From Candidatus Uhrbacteria bacterium (GTDB taxonomy: Bacteria; Patescibacteriota; Patescibacteriia; UBA9934; GWF2-40-263), in assembly GCA_043805995.1 (NCBI GenBank), contig JAZDHJ010000058.1, positions 1 through 44,083 on the forward strand: a stretch of 44,083 nucleotides of DNA, read 5' to 3'. Of this stretch, positions 2,292-44,082 are shown piece after piece (positions within the stretch are counted from its first letter, which is position 1; each line of letters opens with the position of its first letter). Below the pieces are notes generated by a model. The model did no database searches. It worked only from the letters and a program-made list of their open reading frames with translations, and was not told the origin of the DNA. The translations under genes were made by a program, and so were the position numbers.

Positions 2292-2942
2292 TCAAGGTTC
2301 AGACAATTTATCTTCCGCCCACTCATAAAACCCAGCCGCCGAGCTGGCTTGCGGATTGAACTCCGATAGAACTGGCTGAGCAGGATTCAGTTCATTGATA
2401 TCCAAGGCCTGTGAGTTGTTAAGTTGAAAAGTTTGCCCTCCAAGAACGTCTATAAAAACCGGACTGCCGATGGTCGCATAAGTTGTCTTGTCCAAAAAAT
2501 CATAACGTACAACCGTCATTGAGCCAGCGGCAATTTCGCCGGTGGCTTTTGGTGAAGTGACAATAAGTTTTTCTGTTTCCATGGAGGTGCTGGCAAGTAA
2601 GCGACCGCGAACAATTTTTATTTCCACCTGAGTGGGGAAGAGCTGTTCGAGAACGATATCTGTTTGTTGATCGAGCGCGACAGTGATATTTTCTCCAATT
2701 CGAATAAAAGCACGAGAATTTTCCCCAACCATTATTTTTTCACCACGAGTTACCGAATCGCTCGTTTCAACTGTCCGGATTTTTCCAGCTCGATCAACTT
2801 GAGTCTTTCCTTCAACAACCTCGATCGTGACCGGCAGAGATTTAATATAACCTTCACCACCGGCAAAAATAAAACCAAATCTAGCCGAAATTAGCAGGCC
2901 TGATAAAACAATAAAGAAAATTAAAGCCCAGAGTTTTTCCAT
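2292..2942 (-). CDS. Membrane-anchored protein, FecR-domain-like (weak)
   Basis: 216 aa. N-terminal TM helix then a beta-rich region resembling FecR-type domains by eye only. Confidence 0.4.
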   Translation of the reverse strand: MEKLWALIFFIVLSGLLISARFGFIFAGGEGYIKSLPVTIEVVEGKTQVDRAGKIRTVETSDSVTRGEKIMVGENSRAFIRIGENITVALDQQTDIVLEQLFPTQVEIKIVRGRLLASTSMETEKLIVTSPKATGEIAAGSMTVVRYDFLDKTTYATIGSPVFIDVLGGQTFQLNNSQALDINELNPAQPVLSEFNPQASSAAGFYEWAEDKLSEP

Positions 2943-3190
2943 ATGTTTTTTGAGGGGTAAAAGGGGTTTAAGGGGTTGCAGGGAGGTTTTTAGGTTGGGT
3001 GGTTGGTGTGGACGAAGGTCCGAAAGGTGTTAAAGGTTTGAAAGGATTGGTTGGATAGGTTTTTTTAATTTCAATTCAAACAACCAAAACCAATACCTTT
3101 AGGACCTCTACAACCCTTCGGACATAAATCCGATCCTATCCACCGTAAAAATCCCCTTCAACCCCTTAAACCCTTTCCGCCCCCTTTCGA
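2943..3190. repeat. Long imperfect palindrome: G/T-rich arm then C/A-rich arm (word-repeat family)
   Basis: Left arm contains GGGGtaaaaGGGGtttaaGGGGttgcaGGG (2954-2983). Right arm contains CCCCttcaaCCCCttaaaCCCtttccgCCCCC. 2961-2980 is identical to 10716-10735. Confidence 0.8.
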
Positions 3191-3227
3191 TAGTCATTCT
3201 ACCAGAAATTCGCTATACTATCCATGT

Positions 3228-4127
3228 ATGAAAAATAAATATTTTTTAGTTCTTTTTACAACTTTGGTGCTGGCAGGTTTCGGTTGTTCTCCAACTATCC
3301 CAGCCTCCGACACTGCTGCCAAAGACACGGCCGAAGCCGTGGATTTTCAGTCGGGTTCTACTGTTACAATTAAACAAACAGTTTTTGGTCTGGGTGGTAT
3401 TTTTGCCGAGACAGTTTCAGGTGATGGCTTGGCTGAATATCAATTAGTTGTTGATTCATTCGTGCCAGAAAATTTCGTGTCTTTTTCTTGGTCGAACAAA
3501 GTTGAAGTAGAGACAGCTGACTCTATTGCTGTTCGAGAAGCTTTTGAGGCAGCCAGTCACCCTATTGGTGATACTACAAAAGCCCCGACGCCGGTTTACG
3601 AAACCGTCACAAAAACCGGAAACTATTCAACTACCGCTTTGGATAATGGTACAAAAATTCTTTTGCCGGCTTATTGGTCGGAAGGTGACCAATCTTTTGA
3701 GGATAATTCAATTATCTGGTTATCTAAAGAACAATACGAAAGTTTGGTGAGTACAAAAACCGCCACTTTGTCCCTTGGTTTGTTCGATGAAAAAATCGCT
3801 TCACTCGTCGGTATGAGTGACTCGGTCCAAAATGCTTTGAATACCTTGCAACAAAAAGCCGCCGACGCCTCCAAGAGTCAGGATATTTATAAACTGACAG
3901 CTGATAACGATTGGCAAACTTATTCTTTGCTCGTTGATGGAACCGAAAAGACTGTACAAACAATCCAAGCCAATAACTGGTTCGGTTCGTATGTCATTCT
4001 GGCCAATGCCGAGAATCCACTGGTTCTCAAAGCTACCTTGAATCCCTTTGCTCTCGGTTCATTCAATATTTCATCACCACTTTCGTCATTCCTTGGCTAC
4101 GAAGTTACGGAAATTAAGATTAAATAA
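3228..4127 (+). CDS. Secreted or lipoprotein-like hypothetical protein
   Basis: 299 aa. N-terminal signal peptide ending AGFGCS. No recognised domain. Confidence 0.65.
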   Translation: MKNKYFLVLFTTLVLAGFGCSPTIPASDTAAKDTAEAVDFQSGSTVTIKQTVFGLGGIFAETVSGDGLAEYQLVVDSFVPENFVSFSWSNKVEVETADSIAVREAFEAASHPIGDTTKAPTPVYETVTKTGNYSTTALDNGTKILLPAYWSEGDQSFEDNSIIWLSKEQYESLVSTKTATLSLGLFDEKIASLVGMSDSVQNALNTLQQKAADASKSQDIYKLTADNDWQTYSLLVDGTEKTVQTIQANNWFGSYVILANAENPLVLKATLNPFALGSFNISSPLSSFLGYEVTEIKIK

Positions 4128-10675: not shown

Positions 10676-10958
10676 TGGTAGGATTGGGGTGGTTTAGTGG
10701 ATTGAGAGGGGACGGAAGGGGTTTAAGGGGTTGCAGAGGGTTATTCTGATGTTGATTAAGGGTTATTATCGGAGTTGTGGTGATTATTTAGGCGATTAGC
10801 GGGTTGGTGGTTATTGTTTCTTTTTTAAAATTTGTTATTCAAAAAAATAATCACCTTATCAATCATCCAAAAAATCACCCTCCAATAATCACCAAACCAA
10901 ACCTCAACTAAAAATCCCTTACAACCCCTTCGCCCCCTTAAACCCCTTTAACTCCAAT
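10676..10958. repeat. Long imperfect palindrome (G/T-rich arm, AT core, C/A-rich arm), word-repeat family
   Basis: GGGGacggaaGGGGtttaaGGGGttgcagaGGG at 10708-10740. Mirror CCCttacaaCCCCttcgCCCCCttaaaCCCC just before the next start codon. Confidence 0.8.
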
Positions 10959-11672
10959 ATGTTCTCAATCGTCATCCCTACAAAAAACGAAGAAGATTAT
11001 TTGCCTATTCTTTTGCGTTCAATAAAGGATCAAACAGTTCAACCAGATGAAATTATTGTGGCTGATGGCAAATCAACAGATAAGACAGTGGAAATTGCCA
11101 AACATTTTGGTTGTCGGGTTGTTCCTGGTGGTTTGCCTGGTGTTGGTCGTAATCACGGAGCGGCGGTGGCTAAAGGCGAATATATTTTGTTTTTGGATTC
11201 TGATGTTAAATTAATCGACAAACATTTTTTGGAAAAAGCTGAAAGGGAATTGACCCAGAAAAAATTAGATTTTGCCAGTTGTGATGTTGAAGCAATTTCC
11301 AATAAAAAAATCGACCGAGCTTTTCATGAATTTTATAATCATTTTTGTCGAGCTTTTTTACCCATCCACGCTCATGCCCCAGGTTTCTGTATTTTTGCCA
11401 AAAGGTCAAAACACGCCAAACTTGGCGGTTTTGATGAATCAATAGTTTTTTGTGAGGATCATGATTACGCTCAACGCTGTCGCAAATTCGGTAAATTCGG
11501 CTATCTCGATACAATTAGAATTCATGTTTCTACCAGACGTTTTGATCGCGACGGTCGTTTAAATATTGCTGTTAAATATACTTTGGGCGAACTTCATCTT
11601 ATGACTTTGGGGCCGGTTCGTCACAATCATTTTAAATACGAATTCGGTCATCAAACACCGAAGAAAAAATAA
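10959..11672 (+). CDS. Glycosyltransferase family 2
   Basis: 237 aa. FSIVIPTKNEE N-terminus, FLDSDV motif. Confidence 0.85.
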   Translation: MFSIVIPTKNEEDYLPILLRSIKDQTVQPDEIIVADGKSTDKTVEIAKHFGCRVVPGGLPGVGRNHGAAVAKGEYILFLDSDVKLIDKHFLEKAERELTQKKLDFASCDVEAISNKKIDRAFHEFYNHFCRAFLPIHAHAPGFCIFAKRSKHAKLGGFDESIVFCEDHDYAQRCRKFGKFGYLDTIRIHVSTRRFDRDGRLNIAVKYTLGELHLMTLGPVRHNHFKYEFGHQTPKKK

Positions 11673-11676
11673 TTTT

Positions 11677-12249
11677 GTGAGGAGGAAAAAAATTTTAATT
11701 CCCATTGAAGTCATTCCGCACCACGTTCATTTGTCGCAAAGAATGTGGCAGACTTTGTTTGGCAAAAATATTTCGCCAAAAATTTTGCGACCACTTTCTC
11801 AACGTGGCCAAGCGGTTTATCAACAAACCGTCAAAGTTGTCGGTCCAAAAGGCGAAATGACCGAAGTCAGGGTTTTAGGCGGTGCTCGCAAACAAACTCA
11901 GGTCGAACTTTCCGAAGCCGAAGCTATTGCTATTGGTATAAAACCAGTCTGGCGAGTCTCTGGCAAATTATCGCGTACCGTTGGTTGTAAATTAATCGGT
12001 CCGGCCGGTAAAGCGGTTATTAAAAGCGGTGTTATTGTGCCGGTTCCACATCTTCATTTAAATACCAAAGAAGCTGAATCTCTAGATCTGCGTCAAGGCC
12101 AGGAAATTGAATTGAGTTTTTTTGAGGACAAAGCGGCCAAATTAAAAGTTTTAGTTCGCGTCCATCCTTCTTTTCGAGCCGCCTTGCATATAACCCCAGA
12201 TGTCGCCGCCAAACTTTGGCTTTCAATTAGTGATAAAGCAATTCTATGA
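11677..12249 (+). CDS. pduL: Phosphate acyltransferase PduL family
   Basis: 190 aa, GTG start. Duplicated PduL signature (IPHHVHLS ... VPHLHLN). Confidence 0.75.
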   Translation: MRRKKILIPIEVIPHHVHLSQRMWQTLFGKNISPKILRPLSQRGQAVYQQTVKVVGPKGEMTEVRVLGGARKQTQVELSEAEAIAIGIKPVWRVSGKLSRTVGCKLIGPAGKAVIKSGVIVPVPHLHLNTKEAESLDLRQGQEIELSFFEDKAAKLKVLVRVHPSFRAALHITPDVAAKLWLSISDKAIL

Positions 12250-13499
12250 AATCTTTTTTATTTTTTATTTTATTTTTTCTCGGGCTGTTTCCTTTTGGGG
12301 TTAAGGCCACCAACCCTGATTTAAGTGTTATTCAAGAAGGCATCCAGTTTTCCAAAGATACTTTGATTTCCGGTGATTCTTTGCGAATTTACGCTACTGT
12401 CACCAATGTCGGCGACACCGACGTTTCCGGTTACGTGTCTTTTTATCAAGGCTCTTTGCCGATTGGTGACTCTCAGGTTATTTCTGTAAGAGTGGGCGGT
12501 GTACCTGAAGAAGTCTTTGTTGATTTTGTTGTGCCGTCTGGTGCCTTTAATATTCGGGCTGAAATTCGTGGTACTGACCCTCAAGATGTTAATAGTTCAA
12601 ACAACTTAGCTATAACTCAATTGTTCACTCCGATTCAAGACGATGATCGTGATGGTATTGAAAACGATACCGACAATTGTCCGAGTGTCGAAAACTCCGA
12701 TCAGGTTGATACTGACCTCGATGGTCTTGGTGATGTTTGTGATGACGACGACGATGGCGATGGTGTGACCGACGCTGTTGAAAGAGAAATTGGCACTGAT
12801 CCAAAAAAAACCGATACGGATGCTGATGGTTTGTTAGATAATGTTGATCCACACCCAATCACTCCAGAAAGCCAGATTAAAGTTGAAGTACCAGCCCCAG
12901 CCATTCCACCAAGCGTCGTTTCAAGCAACGAATCAACATCAAGTAATAGCTCAGTTTCAGAAAATGTTGATAACAACGAAAATGGCGAAGCAGCGGTTGG
13001 CTCAGATTTGGTTCCGGAACCAATTTCGGCAAACGATGAGACAGCGAACGAATCGAAATTTTCTCTATCACCGAATGCGGTTTTTACTTATCAAAAAGAA
13101 ACTTGGAACACTTATAATTTTGAGGCACAGTTACCGTCGAGTAATGGTTATCGAGTTTCTTGGGACTTTGGCGATGGTACAACTTCAAATTACGAAAAAA
13201 TTGAACACGTTTATAAACAGACTGGAAATTATACAGTAAATATTTCAGTTGAAGGCTCGGACGGAAAAATTTATGAAGATTCGGTTACGGTTCATGTTTC
13301 CTTTTTTTCATTACAAAATCGAATTGTGCAATTTGTGATTTTTGTTTTGTTGCTGGCTCTTTTTCTTTTGATATTTTTATTTTTTCGGGCTGGTCGTTCA
13401 CAAACACCTAAAATAAATGTTAAAAAAACAGTTGACGAACCTAATAATTCCGGTTCAATAAAAATTTCAGTTCGCGAAGACAATTCTGAATTGGATTAA
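12246..13499 (+). CDS. Cell-surface protein: CARDB-like, thrombospondin type-3 Asp-rich repeats, PKD-like domain, C-terminal TM anchor
   Basis: 417 aa. Signal peptide, DxDxDGxxDxxDxC repeats, WDFGDG..Y.V PKD pattern, hydrophobic C-terminal helix. ATGA overlap with pduL. Confidence 0.8.
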   Translation: MKSFLFFILFFLGLFPFGVKATNPDLSVIQEGIQFSKDTLISGDSLRIYATVTNVGDTDVSGYVSFYQGSLPIGDSQVISVRVGGVPEEVFVDFVVPSGAFNIRAEIRGTDPQDVNSSNNLAITQLFTPIQDDDRDGIENDTDNCPSVENSDQVDTDLDGLGDVCDDDDDGDGVTDAVEREIGTDPKKTDTDADGLLDNVDPHPITPESQIKVEVPAPAIPPSVVSSNESTSSNSSVSENVDNNENGEAAVGSDLVPEPISANDETANESKFSLSPNAVFTYQKETWNTYNFEAQLPSSNGYRVSWDFGDGTTSNYEKIEHVYKQTGNYTVNISVEGSDGKIYEDSVTVHVSFFSLQNRIVQFVIFVLLLALFLLIFLFFRAGRSQTPKINVKKTVDEPNNSGSIKISVREDNSELD

Positions 13500-38441: not shown

Positions 38442-39254
38442 TTACAACGGGCTCTTAATGTTTTTTAAAGCCGGATTGGTTAAGTGGGTGTAAATTTGCG
38501 TAGTGCGAATATTTTGGTGGCCGAGCAATTCTTGGACATATCTTACATCAACGCCGTTTTCTAATAAATGGGTAGCAAAACTGTGACGTAGAGAATGAAA
38601 GGTTGCGTCTTTTTTTATACCAGTGATTTTTAGAGCTCGTTCAAAAATAATTTGTGCCGTTCTTTCGGTCAATCGACCGCCTCGTTCACTGGCAAACAGG
38701 AAATCATTTGCCTCCTTACCGGCCATAAATTGAAGAATTTTATTTTTCAATTTTTCCGGCATAACAGTAATTCGGTCTTTGGCACCTTTTGATTGTCGAA
38801 TATTGAGTTGGAGATTCGGTAAATCAAGGTCTTTAATCCGGAGTTTTACGGTCTCGGAAACTCTTAAACCGGCACCATAAGACAAAGAAATCATCAGTTG
38901 GTGTTTTTCATTACCAATCGAATTGATTATTTGCTCAATTTCCTCACGCGACAAAACCACCGGCAGACGGTTAGGTTTTTTGGAGAACTTCAGGTTTAGT
39001 TTGAAAGGCACTCTGACAATATTTTCGTAAAAAAATTTGATAGCGTTCAGGTGAACATTCATAGTTTGTCCGGATAAACCGCGATCTTTTAGACCAATCA
39101 AGTATTCCTTAACCTTAAATTCATCGAATTTATCAAAATTAGTCTTGAGAAAACCAAAAAAATCTTTTAGACAACCCAAATAACTATCCAAAGTATTCGA
39201 ACTGTAGTTTCGATACCGCAATTCGGTCTTAACTTTATCTAAAAAATCTTGCAT
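38442..39254 (-). CDS. Tyrosine site-specific recombinase (Xer-sized, IntI-like blocks)
   Basis: 270 aa from ATG 39254. LSYGAGLRVSE (Arg), KGAKDR, HSLRHSFATHLL, LLGHQNIRTTQIYTH (catalytic Tyr), C-terminal KSPL. No IntI-specific insertion. Confidence 0.9.
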   Translation of the reverse strand: MQDFLDKVKTELRYRNYSSNTLDSYLGCLKDFFGFLKTNFDKFDEFKVKEYLIGLKDRGLSGQTMNVHLNAIKFFYENIVRVPFKLNLKFSKKPNRLPVVLSREEIEQIINSIGNEKHQLMISLSYGAGLRVSETVKLRIKDLDLPNLQLNIRQSKGAKDRITVMPEKLKNKILQFMAGKEANDFLFASERGGRLTERTAQIIFERALKITGIKKDATFHSLRHSFATHLLENGVDVRYVQELLGHQNIRTTQIYTHLTNPALKNIKSPL

Positions 39255-39315
39255 AAGGAGCAAAAAGTGATACAATTATTCTTAGTTAGAAGTATAACAC
39301 ACTTCGCATTTCATT

Positions 39316-39365
39316 CCCAAACTCGTTTCTATTAAGAAATTAATTCGGATAGAAACGAGTTAGGC
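39316..39365 (+). repeat. attI/attC-like perfect palindrome ending in GTTAGGC
   Basis: AACTCGTTTCTAT (39320-32), 16-nt loop, ATAGAAACGAGTT (39349-61). GTTAGGC at 39359-65. Confidence 0.6.
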
Positions 39366-39403
39366 GAAATTTTGTCCAATAATTATTTTTTGATTTTTTA
39401 GAT

Positions 39404-40084
39404 ATGACCAAATTTGAAAAATATATTGAAGTTCTAGCTTCCCACGAGGATACAAAAAGTGAATCTTTCCTTGATTCAAGAGGAAGAATTTTGGTTAATG
39501 CTGGGATACGACTAAATTGGATTGGTGATTTTATTTCTAATCCTCAAATTAAATACAAATTAAAAAGTGTTCCAATAAATAAAGTTTTGTTTACTGGCAC
39601 CAATCCAAGCTGGAATAAAATTCTTATCGATCAGTGCGAAAAAAGCGTAGAAAAATTTCAGGCATTAACCAAAAATAATTTGGAAATCAAGAAAAGATTT
39701 TTAAAAGAGGCCTCGTTCGGGGATGAGCCTATTTTAATGCGCGGTCCGGACGAAAATGGTCTTTATCGAGTCTTTGATGGTATGCACAGATTTGTTGGTG
39801 CGGTTTTAAAAAATAAAAAAACCATTTCAGCGTATGTGCCTATAAACGAAGATAGCCATCTGCCAATTTGCGAAGCCCATGTTATCTATGACCTCATTCG
39901 TGGTTTTCAGCGACACGCTAAAGACCAACAAGGAAAACGTGAGTTATATTACGCATTAAAATTGTTAGCTAGAACATATGAAAACGTTGTTGACTTGCTA
40001 AATATTCGTTTCAGTTTTAAATACGTTCCTGACAAAGATGTACAAAAAATAATAGAAAAAGTAATCAAAAAAATCAAAAAATAA
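39404..40084 (+). CDS. Cassette ORF 1: ParB/Srx-fold nuclease-like protein (weak)
   Basis: 226 aa. YRVFDGMHRFVGAVL resembles the ParB-like DGxHR motif. Confidence 0.45.
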   Translation: MTKFEKYIEVLASHEDTKSESFLDSRGRILVNAGIRLNWIGDFISNPQIKYKLKSVPINKVLFTGTNPSWNKILIDQCEKSVEKFQALTKNNLEIKKRFLKEASFGDEPILMRGPDENGLYRVFDGMHRFVGAVLKNKKTISAYVPINEDSHLPICEAHVIYDLIRGFQRHAKDQQGKRELYYALKLLARTYENVVDLLNIRFSFKYVPDKDVQKIIEKVIKKIKK

Positions 40085-40115
40085 TTATTGGGCAAAACTC
40101 AGGGGCTAAAGCCTC

Positions 40116-40187
40116 GCCTAACACGCGATATCCGTAAAGGCTAAAGCCACATTTCTACGAAACGTCAGATATCGCGATACGTTGTAC
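40116..40187 (+). repeat. attC-like site 1 (72 bp)
   Basis: GCCTAAC-acgcgatatc-loop-gatatcgcg(a)t(ac)-GTTGTAC, with bulged bases in the 3' arm. Confidence 0.6.
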
Positions 40188-40257
40188 GAAATAATGAAAA
40201 GTTTTTAAATTTCTTTCAGAAATTTATATTCGCAATTTTATTTTTTTAATTCTATCT

Positions 40258-41076
40258 ATGAACAAAAGATCTGAAACACAAAATTTTCAACCAGAAACCC
40301 CAGAGAATAAACCACTATCCCATATTAGTGAATTTCTGGAAGCGACTAATCAAGGTTTTGAAAGTAAGCCAACCGGACATGTTCATAAAAACGATGAAGG
40401 GTATGGTAATATTCTTCGAAAAATTAGTGATGGTGATGTTGAGAGCGAAAAAACAAGGGTAGGAATTGTTGTGGGAAATGGCGCAATTCTTTCTTCGCTT
40501 CCAGAAATTCCAGCCGATGTAATTATAATGAGCGACTATAATCCATTTATTCACCAATGGACTCAGTTTACGCAAAGGGCACTAGCTGAATCTGGCTCAA
40601 TTGATGAATATAAGAAAAAAGTATACGATCAGCAAAATCCACTTTATTCAGAAAGCTATAGAGAAGGATTAGAAAGAGAAATGGCAGATTTGGGAGAAAG
40701 ACATTTTCTAAGTAGCGAGGATAGATTTCAAAAATGCAAAGAAACTCTCGCACGAAAGAAATTAATAATGGGCGCTCTTGATTTAAGAAATGCTGATGTT
40801 TTAAGAAGTCTCACAGAAGCATTAACTAAAGATAACTCAGAAATCACTTTTGCAAACTTAACAAATGTTTGGGAACATGCTGGCGATTCAATGGAACAAG
40901 CAATCCCAAATCTGCCATTTCATCCAGAAGCTCGTATACTTTTTTCTTCTCGCGCATACACAGAGCGATTTTTCCCTAAAATGATGGGGGTATGTAGAGG
41001 ATTAGCTAAGTATATTGAGAATGCTAAGTCGGCATACTCTTTCTGGATCTATAAAAACAAAAGTGGTTATAGATAA
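40258..41076 (+). CDS. Cassette ORF 2: hypothetical protein
   Basis: 272 aa. VGIVVGNGAILSSL..ADVIIMSDYN segment. No family assigned. Confidence 0.55.
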   Translation: MNKRSETQNFQPETPENKPLSHISEFLEATNQGFESKPTGHVHKNDEGYGNILRKISDGDVESEKTRVGIVVGNGAILSSLPEIPADVIIMSDYNPFIHQWTQFTQRALAESGSIDEYKKKVYDQQNPLYSESYREGLEREMADLGERHFLSSEDRFQKCKETLARKKLIMGALDLRNADVLRSLTEALTKDNSEITFANLTNVWEHAGDSMEQAIPNLPFHPEARILFSSRAYTERFFPKMMGVCRGLAKYIENAKSAYSFWIYKNKSGYR

Positions 41077-41133
41077 AAAAATAAAATTGCGAATATATTT
41101 TGCTATCGCAAAATTAAAACTTTTCATTACATC

Positions 41134-41207
41134 GTACAACACGGCATATCTGGTTCCGCTTCGCTACACCCAAATGCTTCGCGCTTCAGATATCCGGAAA
41201 CGTAGGC
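41134..41207 (+). repeat. attC-like site 2
   Basis: GTACAAC-acggcatatctgg-loop-cagatatccggaaac-GTAGGC. The 3' core lacks one T relative to GTTAGGC. Confidence 0.5.
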
Positions 41208-41281
41208 AAAAGACGTGGCGCTTTTGCCTAATCGCCGCGTCTATCGTCGCTGTTCTACTCAGGCCGCGCACCACGTCCTTC

Positions 41282-41356
41282 GCATAACAGATGTGAGGCT
41301 CCACTTCGTTCTATCCATGTTGTTATCGCAACATCTCATATCTGGATACGATTAAG
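41282..41356 (+). repeat. attC-like site 2b (degenerate)
   Basis: GCATAAC-agatgtgag-loop-ctcatatctggatac-GATTAAG. Confidence 0.4.
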
Positions 41357-41394
41357 TGAAAATAATTTTTGGCCCCTTGAGACGTTTTACCCAT

Positions 41395-42021
41395 ATGAAT
41401 AAAAAGAACGCAATTATAATTCTTGCCGGGGGAATAACCAAAGAAGGTTCATTGCCAGATATTCCAAAATTTCGAGCAGACAAAGGATTTGAATTATTTA
41501 AGGCTGGTGTAGCAGACAAAATTATTATTTCTGGTCGTTATAGTTTTTTATTGGATTACACACCACCTACTACCGAAGCTCAAATAATGAAAGATTATCT
41601 TGTTGCCCTTGGAATCGACAAAGAAAAAATCTTTCTTGAAGAAAAATCTACTGATACAATTGGCAACGCTTATTACACAAAACAAATACTTTTAGATAAA
41701 AATTGGAAAAATATTGTTGTGGTAACTTCCGATTTTCATATTGAACGAACAAAATACATTTTTTCTAAAATACTCGGAAAAGATATTTTTTCCGTCTCAT
41801 ACGAGGAAGCACCGAGCGAATTGACTACCGAACAATATGAGGAGAAGGTGATCTTAGAACAGAAAATTTTGGGATTTACAATGAAATGGTTAGATAAAAT
41901 TGAAAATGGAAACGATGACCAAATTAGAACTTTCTTAATGACAGATCACCCCGGTTATGCAAAAGATCCAAATATTTCAAAACAAGATTTATTAGGTATG
42001 ATGGAAAAGGCTAAAATTTAA
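41395..42021 (+). CDS. Cassette ORF 3: DUF218/YdcF-family protein
   Basis: 208 aa from ATG 41395 (the ORF is open from GTG 41356). IIILAGG...DKIIISG...STDTIGNAYY..VVVTSDFH. Confidence 0.7.
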   Translation: MNKKNAIIILAGGITKEGSLPDIPKFRADKGFELFKAGVADKIIISGRYSFLLDYTPPTTEAQIMKDYLVALGIDKEKIFLEEKSTDTIGNAYYTKQILLDKNWKNIVVVTSDFHIERTKYIFSKILGKDIFSVSYEEAPSELTTEQYEEKVILEQKILGFTMKWLDKIENGNDDQIRTFLMTDHPGYAKDPNISKQDLLGMMEKAKI

Positions 42022-42026
42022 CTGTC

Positions 42027-42126
42027 GTTTAACACGATATATCTGGTTACAAATCTTCCAAGAGTATTCGTTCATATCTTGTTTTGCTAGGCTCTGTAAA
42101 ATATCAAATATGTCGATACGTTATAT
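42027..42126 (+). repeat. attC-like site 3 (100 bp)
   Basis: GTTTAAC-acgatatatctgg-loop-atatgtcgatac-GTTATAT. Confidence 0.55.
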
Positions 42127-42237
42127 ACATTTAAAAACTAAGCCCCTCAAAATTTTGCGATCCCCGAGAGCTTAATAGAAAATACTAAAAATATTAATAA
42201 GGAATTCGATTTTAAATTTATTTAACAGATTTGCACT

Positions 42238-43566
42238 ATGAAAAAAACAATAAAAAACTCAATTAGAATTCTAAGTACGATAGTCATGGTTATCGCGGTG
42301 TTTTTTATTGCTTTTGTTGCGTACAATAAATTTAAGCCAACTAGCCCCTTCACAAATGGCGGAAACGAACGGAACATGATTGTCGTTCTGAGTGACCTTC
42401 ATCTTGGTGCCGACATCGCCTATGCCGAGTGCAACAAAAATCGTTCTTCTCTCCAAAAGCTACTCGAACAAATAAGTGTGTCGCCAAACATTAAAGAACT
42501 GGTGATCGCTGGAGATTTGCTTGACGAGTGGTATGTGCCAGCAACAGTAGATACTTATGCCGGAAAAGATCAACGCGATTTTGTCCAGCGGATTGCGACA
42601 ACCAACAAAGATGTAATTGAGACTTTTAATAATATAATTCAAGCCGGAGAAATTTTAGTCACCTATGTTCCCGGAAATCACGATCTGACAATAACTGCGG
42701 AAAATATTGATCTTATTCTGCCGGGAATAAATCAGGCCCGCGATGAGGAACAAGGATTAGGCACCTACTCGCCAGCCGATTATCCTGAAATAGCCATTGA
42801 GCACGGTCATCGTTATAATTTTTTCTGTGCGCCAGATCCGATTTCCAACCAAGCTGTTGCGCCAGGGACTATCATGCCTCCAGGATACTTTTTTACAAGA
42901 ATTGCCGCCCTCCATCTGCTACAAAAAACTCAAACACCAGGCGATACTATGCCGATTGTTACTCCTAACAATTCTGACGATGTTAGTCAAAGTTCGTTAT
43001 TCTCCTATTGGAAACTTTGGGCCTGGGCGATCAATTATCTGCCAATAAAGGAAAAGTTTGATGAAGAAATTATTGTAACAAACGTTGATGGCTTCACCGA
43101 GACGTATTCAGTTAATGATTTGCTACCTTATCAAAAAATAGCTGGTGGAAAAATAGACGTGAATCTCTATAAGGGAATTCAAGATACTTGGGACCAAAGA
43201 CAAATTCTTAATCATGTACCTGTTAATATTCCTGTAGTTCAAGCGATCGCCAAGGCCTCTTCGGCCGAGGAGACTGATAATCAGGCCGCGGTACAGTATT
43301 TTCTGAACCCTGATTCTGATAAAAGAATCGTCGTTTTTGGCCATAGCCATGTGGCAAAAATTAGTTCGTCTAATAATTATAACGGGCAAAAATCAATCTA
43401 TGCTAACTCGGGAACCTGGATTGATCACAATCCAAATCTGACAACCATGAATTTCATCGTCATAACCCCACAAAATACTAATCCGTCTTCGCAAACCTAT
43501 GTTAAGCTTTATAATTTCGAGGGTGAAGTTGCCACAAAAATGGCTGAAGACGCCTTACGTTACTAA
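42238..43566 (+). CDS. Cassette ORF 4: membrane-anchored metallophosphoesterase
   Basis: 442 aa. DLHLG, GDLLDEW, GNHD, GHRY, GHSH motifs. N-terminal TM helix. Confidence 0.8.
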   Translation: MKKTIKNSIRILSTIVMVIAVFFIAFVAYNKFKPTSPFTNGGNERNMIVVLSDLHLGADIAYAECNKNRSSLQKLLEQISVSPNIKELVIAGDLLDEWYVPATVDTYAGKDQRDFVQRIATTNKDVIETFNNIIQAGEILVTYVPGNHDLTITAENIDLILPGINQARDEEQGLGTYSPADYPEIAIEHGHRYNFFCAPDPISNQAVAPGTIMPPGYFFTRIAALHLLQKTQTPGDTMPIVTPNNSDDVSQSSLFSYWKLWAWAINYLPIKEKFDEEIIVTNVDGFTETYSVNDLLPYQKIAGGKIDVNLYKGIQDTWDQRQILNHVPVNIPVVQAIAKASSAEETDNQAAVQYFLNPDSDKRIVVFGHSHVAKISSSNNYNGQKSIYANSGTWIDHNPNLTTMNFIVITPQNTNPSSQTYVKLYNFEGEVATKMAEDALRY

Positions 43567-43645: not shown

Positions 43646-43947
43646 ATGGCGTTTACAAAAGAACAAAAAACTCTTGTATTAAGACAGTTGCAAGCTTTTA
43701 AAAGAAATTCTGACATAAAAAAAATAATTTTAAGCGAAGATTCGTACAGCTTTCTTGAATTATTGATTGAACGAGGTGTTTTTGGCTCAGATATTATTAC
43801 CACCGCCATGCATCTTGCAAAATTTTTATATAAACACCAAGAATTGTATTTTCAAAAAGACGTGGTCGATGTTGGCTGTGGTCCAGGAACGCAAGGAATT
43901 ATAATGGCAAAATATGGCGCAAAATCTGTCTTTTTTTCCGACATTAA
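43646..43947 (+). pseudogene. Class I SAM-dependent methyltransferase, interrupted after about 100 codons by the terminal repeat
   Basis: Motif I VVDVGCGPGTQG, post-I SVFFSDI. From 43944 the frame runs through repeat sequence to a stop at 44002. Confidence 0.7.
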
Positions 43948-44082
43948 TTGTCCACCCCACCCGGTAAACCACTGGTTTGACCAGTGGACTCAAAAGGTTT
44001 GACCTTAACGCAGAAAAACAAAAAACATAGTAAAATTCTGACCGGTGGCTTATGAGATACGCTCTGGTAAGATTTCACTATG
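43944..44082. repeat. Terminal inverted repeat, right copy
   Basis: Exact reverse complement of 1-139. Confidence 0.95.

Follow-up and report, generated by a model that had tools for sequence, protein, structure and literature searches.

In a 44,083-nucleotide stretch of DNA from Candidatus Uhrbacteria bacterium (GenBank assembly GCA_043805995.1, contig JAZDHJ010000058.1; the whole stretch is referred to as the window), two consecutive open reading frames (ORFs), ORF1 and ORF2, are each enclosed by a long inverted repeat close to a tyrosine recombinase gene. The two ORFs are probably cassettes of a chromosomal integron-like platform, and the repeats are best read as the outer halves of the cassettes' own recombination hairpins. 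A sequence-only reading of the window had left two explanations side by side, namely unusually extended stems of attC sites and gene segments that are inverted by the adjacent recombinase. Several properties of the repeat arms support the first of them: they start at the G|TT and AAC cores of the attC-like sites, pair only within one cassette and covary, and they are found in homologous cassettes but not around copies of the ORF1-type gene outside cassettes. The features needed for the argument are the following (positions are those of the window).

38442..39275, minus strand: tyrosine recombinase gene, 277 amino acids (aa), Pfam Phage_integrase and SAM_4, IntI/XerA-like.
39303..39359, plus strand: attI-like region with the boxes TTCGCAT (39303-39309) and TTCGGATAGAAACGAG (39344-39359); predicted crossover between G39359 and T39360.
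39317-39364: local hairpin of the attI region, found by the repeat finder.
39359..39403, plus strand: 5' arm of cassette 1, starting with the R' core GTTAGGC, which is followed by the conserved GAAAT and by a variable stretch up to the ATG.
39404..40084, plus strand: ORF1, 226 aa, stop codon at 40082-40084.
40064..40122, plus strand: 3' arm of cassette 1, with the insert hairpin (40098-40112), TC and the R'' core GCCTAAC (40116-40122).
40116..40187, plus strand: attC-like site 1 (covariance model R2: 49.4 bits, E = 2.5e-8), in the order R'' GCCTAAC, A, L'' CGCGATATC, loop, L' GATATCGCG, ATAC, R' G|TTGTAC.
40181..40257, plus strand: 5' arm of cassette 2, with stem A (40181-40205; R' core, GAAAT and a conserved part), a local hairpin (40207-40225) and stem B (40226-40247).
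40258..41076, plus strand: ORF2, 272 aa, weak DUF7790 match.
41074..41140, plus strand: 3' arm of cassette 2, with stem B' (41075-41096), a local hairpin (41097-41114) and stem A' (41116-41140; ACATC and R'' GTACAAC).
41134..41207, plus strand: attC-like site 2 (R2: 41.0 bits, E = 2.7e-6).

In cassette 1, positions 39370-39403 and 40064-40097 were identified by the repeat finder as an inverted repeat of 34 nucleotides (nt) with 94% complementarity, and the core gttaggcga (39359-39367) pairs with tcgcctaac (40114-40122) over 9 nt. In the downstream copy a 15-nt insert, tcaggggctaaagcc, separates the arm from the core; it had already been noticed by eye, as had the overlap of the downstream copy with the last six codons of ORF1, and both details hold, the stop codon being covered as well. 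The insert is itself a small hairpin, and a 65-nt hairpin occupies the equivalent position in homologous cassettes. In cassette 2, positions 40181-40205 pair with 41116-41140 (25 nt, 92%) and positions 40198-40248 with 41074-41124 (51 nt, 78%). The central patch without complementarity had been put at 13 nt; it comprises about 19 nt and consists of two different local hairpins, at 40207-40225 (aaatttctttcagaaattt) and at 41097-41114 (attttgctatcgcaaaat).

The local inverted-repeat score was compared with those of 500 dinucleotide-preserving shuffles, and it amounted to 29.0 for cassette 1 (shuffled 11.0 +/- 1.6, z = 11.1) and to 39.5 for cassette 2 (shuffled 10.9 +/- 1.7, z = 16.7). Therefore, low complexity or AT-richness does not explain the repeats, and the bracketing of both ORFs by long inverted repeats that begin at the GTT/AAC core is confirmed. 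A repeat of about 70% complementarity that had been seen by eye around a further cassette of the window, which encodes a DUF218 protein, turned out to be a chance match (shuffle z = -0.2); the extension is therefore frequent, not universal.

For a comparative analysis, 336 relatives of the recombinase were confirmed, and 80 loci were kept, the recombinases of which are 55-88% identical to that of the window and which nearly all stem from metagenome-assembled genomes (MAGs) labelled Patescibacteria; the closest locus found belongs to a Uhrbacteria MAG (88%). Recombination sites were searched with covariance models, which replaced a simple finder of AAC...GTT with ungapped stems that had been too strict and too unspecific. 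The model was seeded by hand with eight sites, four of the window and four of locus L001, and refined once, resulting in model R2. In the window and the 80 loci it yielded 134 matches (E<1), without exception on the upstream side of the recombinase gene and on the strand that diverges from it, which is the arrangement of the window. The hairpin modules between the ORFs share one form, RYYYAAC, A, stem, loop, stem, NNAC, GTTRRRY, in which AAC and TT are invariant. This is the imperfect hairpin R''(RYYYAAC)-L''...L'-R'(GTTRRRY) of attC sites, which the R box closes according to the canonical definitions of integrons and attC sites (PMC5027507).

The site consensus is longer than the classical 7-nt cores, comprising 12 nt at either end (GTTAYRYGAAAT and ACATCRYRTAAC). 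GAAAT after R' is conserved at 71-92% per position, ACATC precedes R'', and a fixed AA/CA mismatch is left in the hairpin. In the attC sites of integrons, the two strands are distinguished by extrahelical bases and an unpaired central spacer. Here, the mismatch is accompanied by an asymmetric spacer (A versus NNAC), and the bulged bases of the L stem are inconsistent between sites. Along the arrays, the R' core of each site pairs with the R'' core of the following site, which is a signature of integron cassettes that are cut at G|TT. The same boundary emerged from two further comparisons. Cassette 2 recurs in a metagenome contig (L106; ORF2 91% identical) with different neighbours on both sides, and the homology starts at G|TT; and in a cross-locus BLAST comparison 456 matches break at R' and only 23 span it. 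In 71 of 75 cassettes, the longest ORF points away from the recombinase gene.

Between the recombinase gene and the first cassette start, which is of the GTTRRRYGAAAT type, the attI-like consensus TTCGYATAnAAACGAG|TT is found in most of the 47 loci inspected. It occupies the position of attI and would be expected to serve as such. Because of the R2 sites, the complementarity of successive R' and R'' cores, the attI-like box and the breakpoints at G|TT, the locus is, as far as its sequence anatomy goes, an integron-like platform comprising a recombinase, a conserved attI-like box and an array of attC-like hairpins. It should be noted that the attI-like region is conserved over very diverse lineages of the Candidate Phyla Radiation (CPR), that a second TTCGYATA box is often present about 45 nt upstream, resembling the accessory direct repeats of attI1, and that in the window and in L037 the region also folds into a hairpin, which is not conserved across the other loci.

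The recombinase itself contains the Pfam domain Phage_integrase (6e-43) and an N-terminal SAM-like domain, SAM_4. Its best NCBIfam match is TIGR02249 (integron integrase), with 233 bits in two stretches, which does not reach the cut-off of 265, and it also matches NF040815 (XerA) with 228 bits, which exceeds the cut-off of 220. The best match in the PDB is the Vibrio integron integrase VchIntIA (2A3V), with query residues 10-178 and 201-277 aligned to residues 4-175 and 241-317, respectively. The intervening residues 176-240 of 2A3V are skipped against 22 query residues; the recombinase thus lacks about 43 residues of the insertion found in IntI. An integrase with the IntI-specific additional domain is a defining feature of integrons, and the 277-aa recombinase lacks it. 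Thus, the system is integron-like in its anatomy, yet deviates from integrons in one defining feature.

The extension of the complementarity beyond the cores is not confined to the window. A local test of the sequence beyond nt 12 resulted in z>4 for 40 and z>6 for 29 of 75 cassettes. In an anchored extension test, 20 of the 46 cassettes with well-matched cores lay beyond the 99th percentile of mismatched pairs, and their extensions reach 21-81 nt from the crossover G. The pairing is restricted to the two ends of one cassette: beyond nt 12, a start/end score of at least 8 was reached by 35% of the pairs from the same cassette, by 1% of the arms flanking one attC-like site and by 2% of random pairs. 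Therefore, the additional stem cannot lengthen an attC hairpin within the array; for this, the start of a cassette has to be linked to, or to meet, the end of the same cassette. This is mirrored by predicted folds of single-stranded DNA, in which the circular junction of cassette 2 yields -60.8 kcal/mol (z = -12.3) and an array context of the same length yields -35 kcal/mol (z = -2.3), with the L-box hairpin alone being formed. As a control, the cassettes dfrA17 and aadA5 of a class 1 array (L120) were analysed, in which the model of the CPR sites has zero matches. Start/end complementarity ended after 7 and 11 nt in these two class 1 cassettes, in agreement with the earlier remark that the extended repeats are unlike classical attC cassettes. 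With the control comprising two cassettes, the general contrast to classical cassettes is based on the definition of attC, according to which the hairpin ends with the R box (PMC5027507). What the extensions generally have in common is a stretch without complementarity in their interior, located about 25-45 nt from the core. A four-helix junction was considered as general architecture and rejected, as local hairpins are present in both arms of only 3 of the 13 strongest cassettes.

The most detailed information on the arms came from relatives of cassette 2. A search of metagenome contigs with a 19-nt piece of its 3' arm recovered 11 loci with a full arm of the cassette 2 type, followed by R'' and an attC-like site, and two genome loci were added to this family. 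The 11 members enclose at least eight unrelated groups of ORFs of 121 to 384 aa, in one orientation throughout. Their arms consist of the conserved stem A next to the core, a local hairpin that differs between the two arms, and the ORF-proximal stem B, the sequence of which varies between cassettes with complementarity being kept. In the alignment of joined arms, 93.7% of the cells are paired, versus 82% after shuffling and about 50% when the partner is slid. Both sides have changed in 30 of 58 pairs in the arm family, including 19 of 22 in stem B. The additional complementarity is thus kept by compensatory changes. The idea that the arms carry a promoter, with the R' core as -35 and TAAAAT as -10 element, fits this arm family only, and was dropped after a scan at chance level.

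These results leave little room for the second explanation offered by the sequence-only reading, that is, shufflon- or inverton-like segments in which the recombinase flips each ORF between its inverted repeats. Inverted repeats do flank the ORFs and a tyrosine recombinase gene does adjoin them, and one cassette with a strong repeat (L049_1) does contain a reversed gene with its own ribosome-binding site. However, the orientation of the longest ORFs is biased 71:4, the 11 cassettes of the arm family are all co-oriented, and the polarity of the arms is nearly invariant, with GAAAT after R' on the 5' side and ACATC before R'' on the 3' side. Reversed ORFs are not enriched among the cassettes with strong repeats (1 of 29, versus 3 of 46 among the others), ORF2 has the same orientation in two independent contexts (the window and L106), and no strand-changing joint was present in the contigs of four groundwater metagenomes; a search of sequencing runs yielded none with more than 14% of the words of the region, none with the source population and none of RNA. 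Moreover, beyond nt 12 the arm sequences differ between cassettes and therefore cannot be recognition sites of a recombinase or invertase. Inversion is thus a very improbable explanation of the repeats. The cassette of L049 (oriented positions 11839-12505) has the strongest repeat, with 62 matches over 70-72 nt and standard arm polarity, and encodes a 124-aa protein on the opposite strand behind a GGAGG site of its own; it may be a self-expressed reverse cassette, like classical toxin-antitoxin cassettes, or a rare flip of the interior.

Whether the repeat belongs to the gene or to the cassette was examined with ORF1, which has about 100 relatives of 45-88% identity, nearly all of them unnamed and those that are named or traced belonging to CPR/Patescibacteria. 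The genomic contexts of eight relatives were fetched. In the cassette contexts L122-125 (73% identical protein), L126-128 (72%) and L132 (58%), an attC-like site and an extended repeat are always present, so that homologous cassettes have indeed kept the repeat, a point that the earlier reading had proposed to check. L122-125 and L126-128 share the arm of cassette 1 of the window, apart from two positions at which both arms have changed in a compensatory manner, and they have the 65-nt hairpin in place of the 15-nt insert; the arm of L132 has a different sequence, yet 19 of 21 positions pair. In the non-cassette contexts L121 (85%), L129, L130, L131 and L133, neither an attC-like site nor the repeat was found. 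The repeat therefore follows the cassette state, not the gene. In L126-L128, the cassette with the ORF1 homologue is preceded by an attI-like sequence (gttcgtataacaaccaG|TTAGATGAAAT), and no recombinase gene was called within 2.5 kb upstream; this array may have become detached or may have lost its integrase.

As parts of recombination hairpins, the repeats are organized as follows. Each cassette has a long imperfect hairpin of its own, with a variable loop innermost, followed outwards by the L box (CGnnATATC / GATATnnCG), the asymmetric spacer (A opposite NNAC), the R box (RYYYAAC / GTTRRRY) with its conserved flanks ACATC / GAAAT and their fixed 2-nt mismatch, and, outermost, a stem of 20-80 base pairs (bp) that is specific to the cassette or its family. 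Strand exchange at G|TT would take place inside this long hairpin and not at its base, and when a circular cassette is opened at G|TT and inserted, one half of the outer stem would become the 5' leader and the other half the 3' trailer. This splitting of the stem by insertion would explain why the repeat is in register with G|TT and AAC, why it is restricted to one cassette, why plain gene copies lack it, and why it extends to the start and stop codons. The whole stem could form only in the excised circle, or when the ends of the cassette meet over a long range in single-stranded DNA. It may stabilize or mark the folded site for re-insertion or excision, and perhaps it stands in for contacts of the domain that the short integrase lacks. 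The anatomy, the boundaries of the cassettes, the restriction of the pairing to one cassette, the covariation, the association with the cassette state and the fixed orientation are seen in the sequences; excision as a circle, folding of one strand and a stabilizing or marking role of the extension are proposed here by analogy with integrons.

Several points weigh against this interpretation. About half of the cassettes are devoid of the extension, and recombination therefore cannot require it. The strength of the extension is uncorrelated with the length of the attC-like site or of the cassette, and the idea that it compensates for short attC sites was dropped. The recombinase is devoid of the IntI insertion and remains below the TIGR02249 cut-off, and thus its mechanism may differ from that of IntI. 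Circular intermediates and single-strand folding are transferred to these organisms by analogy. The types of mismatches are without strand bias (25 G.T versus 15 A.C, not significant), and a fold of bottom-strand DNA is therefore not favoured over a fold of RNA or of both strands. Lastly, the arms make up the whole 5' and 3' untranslated regions, and a role in the messenger RNA (mRNA) fits the same data.

A function at the RNA level, in which the 5' leader of the cassette pairs with the 3' trailer in the transcript, is thus a serious rival, although we regard it as unlikely. The paired ends might form a processing stem of the RNase III type, or a 5'-3' clamp that provides mRNA stability, insulation of the cassette or gating of translation. 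The untranslated regions are occupied by the arms as far as the start and stop codons, complementarity within a cassette is expected if the cassette is one mRNA unit, covariation is as compatible with pairing of RNA as with pairing of DNA, and on the top strand G.T mismatches are slightly more numerous than A.C mismatches. However, the arms run without interruption from the recombination core and its conserved flanks, and the repeat is absent from the non-cassette copies of the ORF1-type gene. Furthermore, wobble pairs are rare in the covarying stem, nearly all of its changes being double, and scans for promoters and terminators remained at chance level.

A different kind of explanation is that the repeats are a footprint of cassette genesis, i.e., that the arms are a palindromic chassis, an empty hairpin cassette, which captured genes at its apex. 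The repeat would be a by-product for which no present function is needed, and this explanation, which we judge to be quite unlikely, is compatible with the arms being halves of a recombination hairpin. It would be in accordance with the occurrence of the same arms around at least eight unrelated ORF groups, with the sharing of arms and attC cores between loci in the absence of any match that spans a whole cassette, and with the existence of hairpin cassettes without ORFs. In addition, the two arms directly adjoin each other in one metagenome contig (joint of 40245 to 41077), and relatives of ORF1 occur both as plain genes and as cassettes. Nevertheless, stem B differs between cassettes and is still complementary, which argues for ongoing selection or re-copying and not for a single capture into a fixed chassis. 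Moreover, no mechanism of capture is visible in the sequence, and the joint of the two arms was seen in a single assembled contig.

Terminal inverted repeats and a repeated family of arms are also typical of miniature inverted-repeat transposable elements (MITEs), and a transposon-like element carrying the ORF as cargo, independently of the attC-like sites, would account for the groundwater-metagenome depth over the arms, which is 10-20 times that over ORF2. Yet the recovered arms are all situated within attC arrays and keep the register of G|TT and AAC, zero copies are found elsewhere in the 44-kb window, target-site duplications are lacking, and the boundaries are the recombination cores, so that such an element is extremely improbable.

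Integrons are the textbook gene-capture system of bacteria, and a comparison with the classical representatives, i.e., the mobile class 1 integrons and sedentary chromosomal integrons such as the Vibrio array with its VCR attC sites, reveals far-reaching agreement. In both cases the recombinase gene diverges from the array and adjoins a conserved attI, the cassettes are co-oriented and mostly contain one ORF of unknown function, and the sites combine RYYYAAC ... GTTRRRY cores with a stem of L boxes, an asymmetric spacer and a variable loop. Since G|TT is the crossover point, the first bases of a cassette are complementary to its own R''. As with VCRs, related recombination sites flank unrelated ORFs. 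In integrons, it is the folded single bottom strand that recombines, and the array is driven by a Pc promoter; the promoter scan of the platform remained at chance level. Unlike classical integrons, the platform described here has an integrase without the IntI-specific insertion of about 43 aa, a conserved core that comprises 12 nt at either end and includes a fixed AA/CA mismatch and, in about half of the cassettes, a stem that continues for 20-80 bp past the R box, so that the crossover would be inside the hairpin.

The pdif modules of Acinetobacter plasmids are gene modules bounded by recombinase sites in inverted orientation, and Xer-dif and pdif sites are 28-bp duplexes with two 11-bp arms and a 6-bp spacer. 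The recombinase of the window is equally close to archaeal XerA and to IntI. However, an inspection of the boundary consensus, made without a dif model, does not reveal an 11-6-11 duplex site of the dif type. Hairpins of 60-200 nt with R and L boxes separate the units, the boundaries of which are at G|TT, and the arms are specific to the cassette instead of being conserved binding sites. Shufflons and invertons (Rci, Fim and Hin type) likewise have inverted repeats adjoining a recombinase gene; their repeats serve as conserved recognition sites and enclose promoters or gene segments that occur in either orientation, in contrast to the variable, covarying repeats around whole ORFs of fixed orientation described here. 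RNase III processing stems bracket ribosomal RNAs and phage mRNAs, and, like the cassette repeats, they place a whole functional unit in the loop of a long stem made by its flanks. The cassette stems differ from them in being continuous with DNA recombination cores and in being absent from non-cassette copies of the gene. MITEs and palindrome-associated elements share with the arms a short, repeated, palindromic, non-coding module that is present in many loci and has ORF-less versions, but the module of the cassettes is confined to attC arrays in register with crossover sites and is not dispersed.

In the literature covered (subscription journals were outside the coverage), no description of integrons of CPR/Patescibacteria or of attC stems that extend past the R box was found. 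It is conceivable, and proposed here only tentatively, that a distinct class of integrons is widespread in CPR/Patescibacteria, in which a short Xer-like integrase without the IntI domain uses cassette hairpins with a crossover inside a long covarying stem, and in which this stem is a reusable adaptor or chassis that captures ordinary chromosomal genes. If so, the plain and cassette forms of one gene and the identical arms of unrelated genes would expose the long-unsolved step of cassette birth. The results touch two open questions of integron biology, namely by what route genes acquire attC sites and to what extent integrons occur beyond Proteobacteria-like lineages. An integron-like platform is common in ultra-small CPR bacteria and operates with an integrase that is devoid of the domain thought to define integron integrases. 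The presence of the same arms around unrelated genes, together with a family that occurs both as plain gene and as cassette, provides concrete sequence pairs for the study of cassette genesis, and the system, the recombination hairpin of which reaches around the gene, is also a natural test of the stem length that a structure-specific recombination site needs. Bioinformatic tools that require the IntI-specific domain would probably miss such arrays, although this is a conjecture.

Many MAGs among the loci L002-L080 have a contig end 100-300 bp upstream of the recombinase gene, that is, at the start of the array. Arrays that vary within the population or are repeated thus seem to break CPR assemblies, and the arrays probably account for many contig breaks beside the recombinase gene. 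Some loci carry labels other than CPR. L019, on a 1.39-Mb contig of the Altiarchaeales archaeon IMC4 (oriented positions about 10800-11150), has a recombinase of 61% identity, an attI-like sequence and one attC-like match (E ~1e-3), and may represent a transfer between domains or a case of mis-binning. Several further loci are labelled Gammaproteobacteria, Actinomycetota or Omnitrophota, perhaps owing to binning errors.

Downstream of cassette 2, the array of the window continues with the following features.

41203-41350, plus strand: ORF-less GC-rich cassette (unit 41203..41356 including its attC-like site).
41282-41356, plus strand: attC-like site 3, belonging to the ORF-less cassette (R2: 39.9 bits); its R' (41350-41356) is GATTAAG.
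41351..42126, plus strand: cassette 4 with the DUF218 ORF (41356-42021), without extended repeat.
42027-42126, plus strand: attC-like site of cassette 4 (R2: 60.4 bits).
42121..43566, plus strand: unit with a metallophosphoesterase ORF (42238-43566, Metallophos).

Two crossover cores of the window are damaged, R' of site 2 (41202-41207) and R' of site 3 (41350-41356). The former has lost one T (G41202-TAGGC, the crossover G being 41202), and its counterpart in L106 is GTTAGCC. The cassettes at these damaged cores may no longer be excisable. Downstream of the metallophosphoesterase ORF, model R2 finds no attC-like site, and the unit has no significant inverted repeat; no attC-like site was detected past 42126 in the window. 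The last ORF (43646-44002) is a short methyltransferase-like fragment with weak MTS/PrmA matches and an early end near the end of the window, and it may mark the region in which the array ends or decays. The searches of Pfam, NCBIfam and PADLOC yielded no family match for ORF1 and assigned no function to the cassette proteins, and Rfam and tRNA scans of the window had zero matches.

Two cassette types of related loci add to the picture of the array. In L001, a cassette with two ORFs (reverse-complemented positions 2430-3370) has a repeat, caatcggattttacaatttttt / aaaaaattgtaaaatccga, that brackets the first ORF only, which by eye encodes a GNAT-type acetyltransferase; the interval from the 3' arm to R'' contains a GC-rich segment and another, small ORF. 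In this layout the arm has therefore stayed with the ORF and not with the core. The ORF-less cassette of the window belongs to a GC-rich family of about 85-150 nt with zero matches in Rfam, members of which are found at 41203-41356 of the window and in L001, L079 (two), L032, L031 and L073. They start with GTTAKGCAAAAG, fold on themselves, and have an R''-like GCNTAA(C/T) in their interior and a second R'' at their end. Over its first 85 nt (41206-41290), the cassette in the window is 94% identical to L001, and these ORF-less cassettes may be structured RNAs or 'empty' cassettes.

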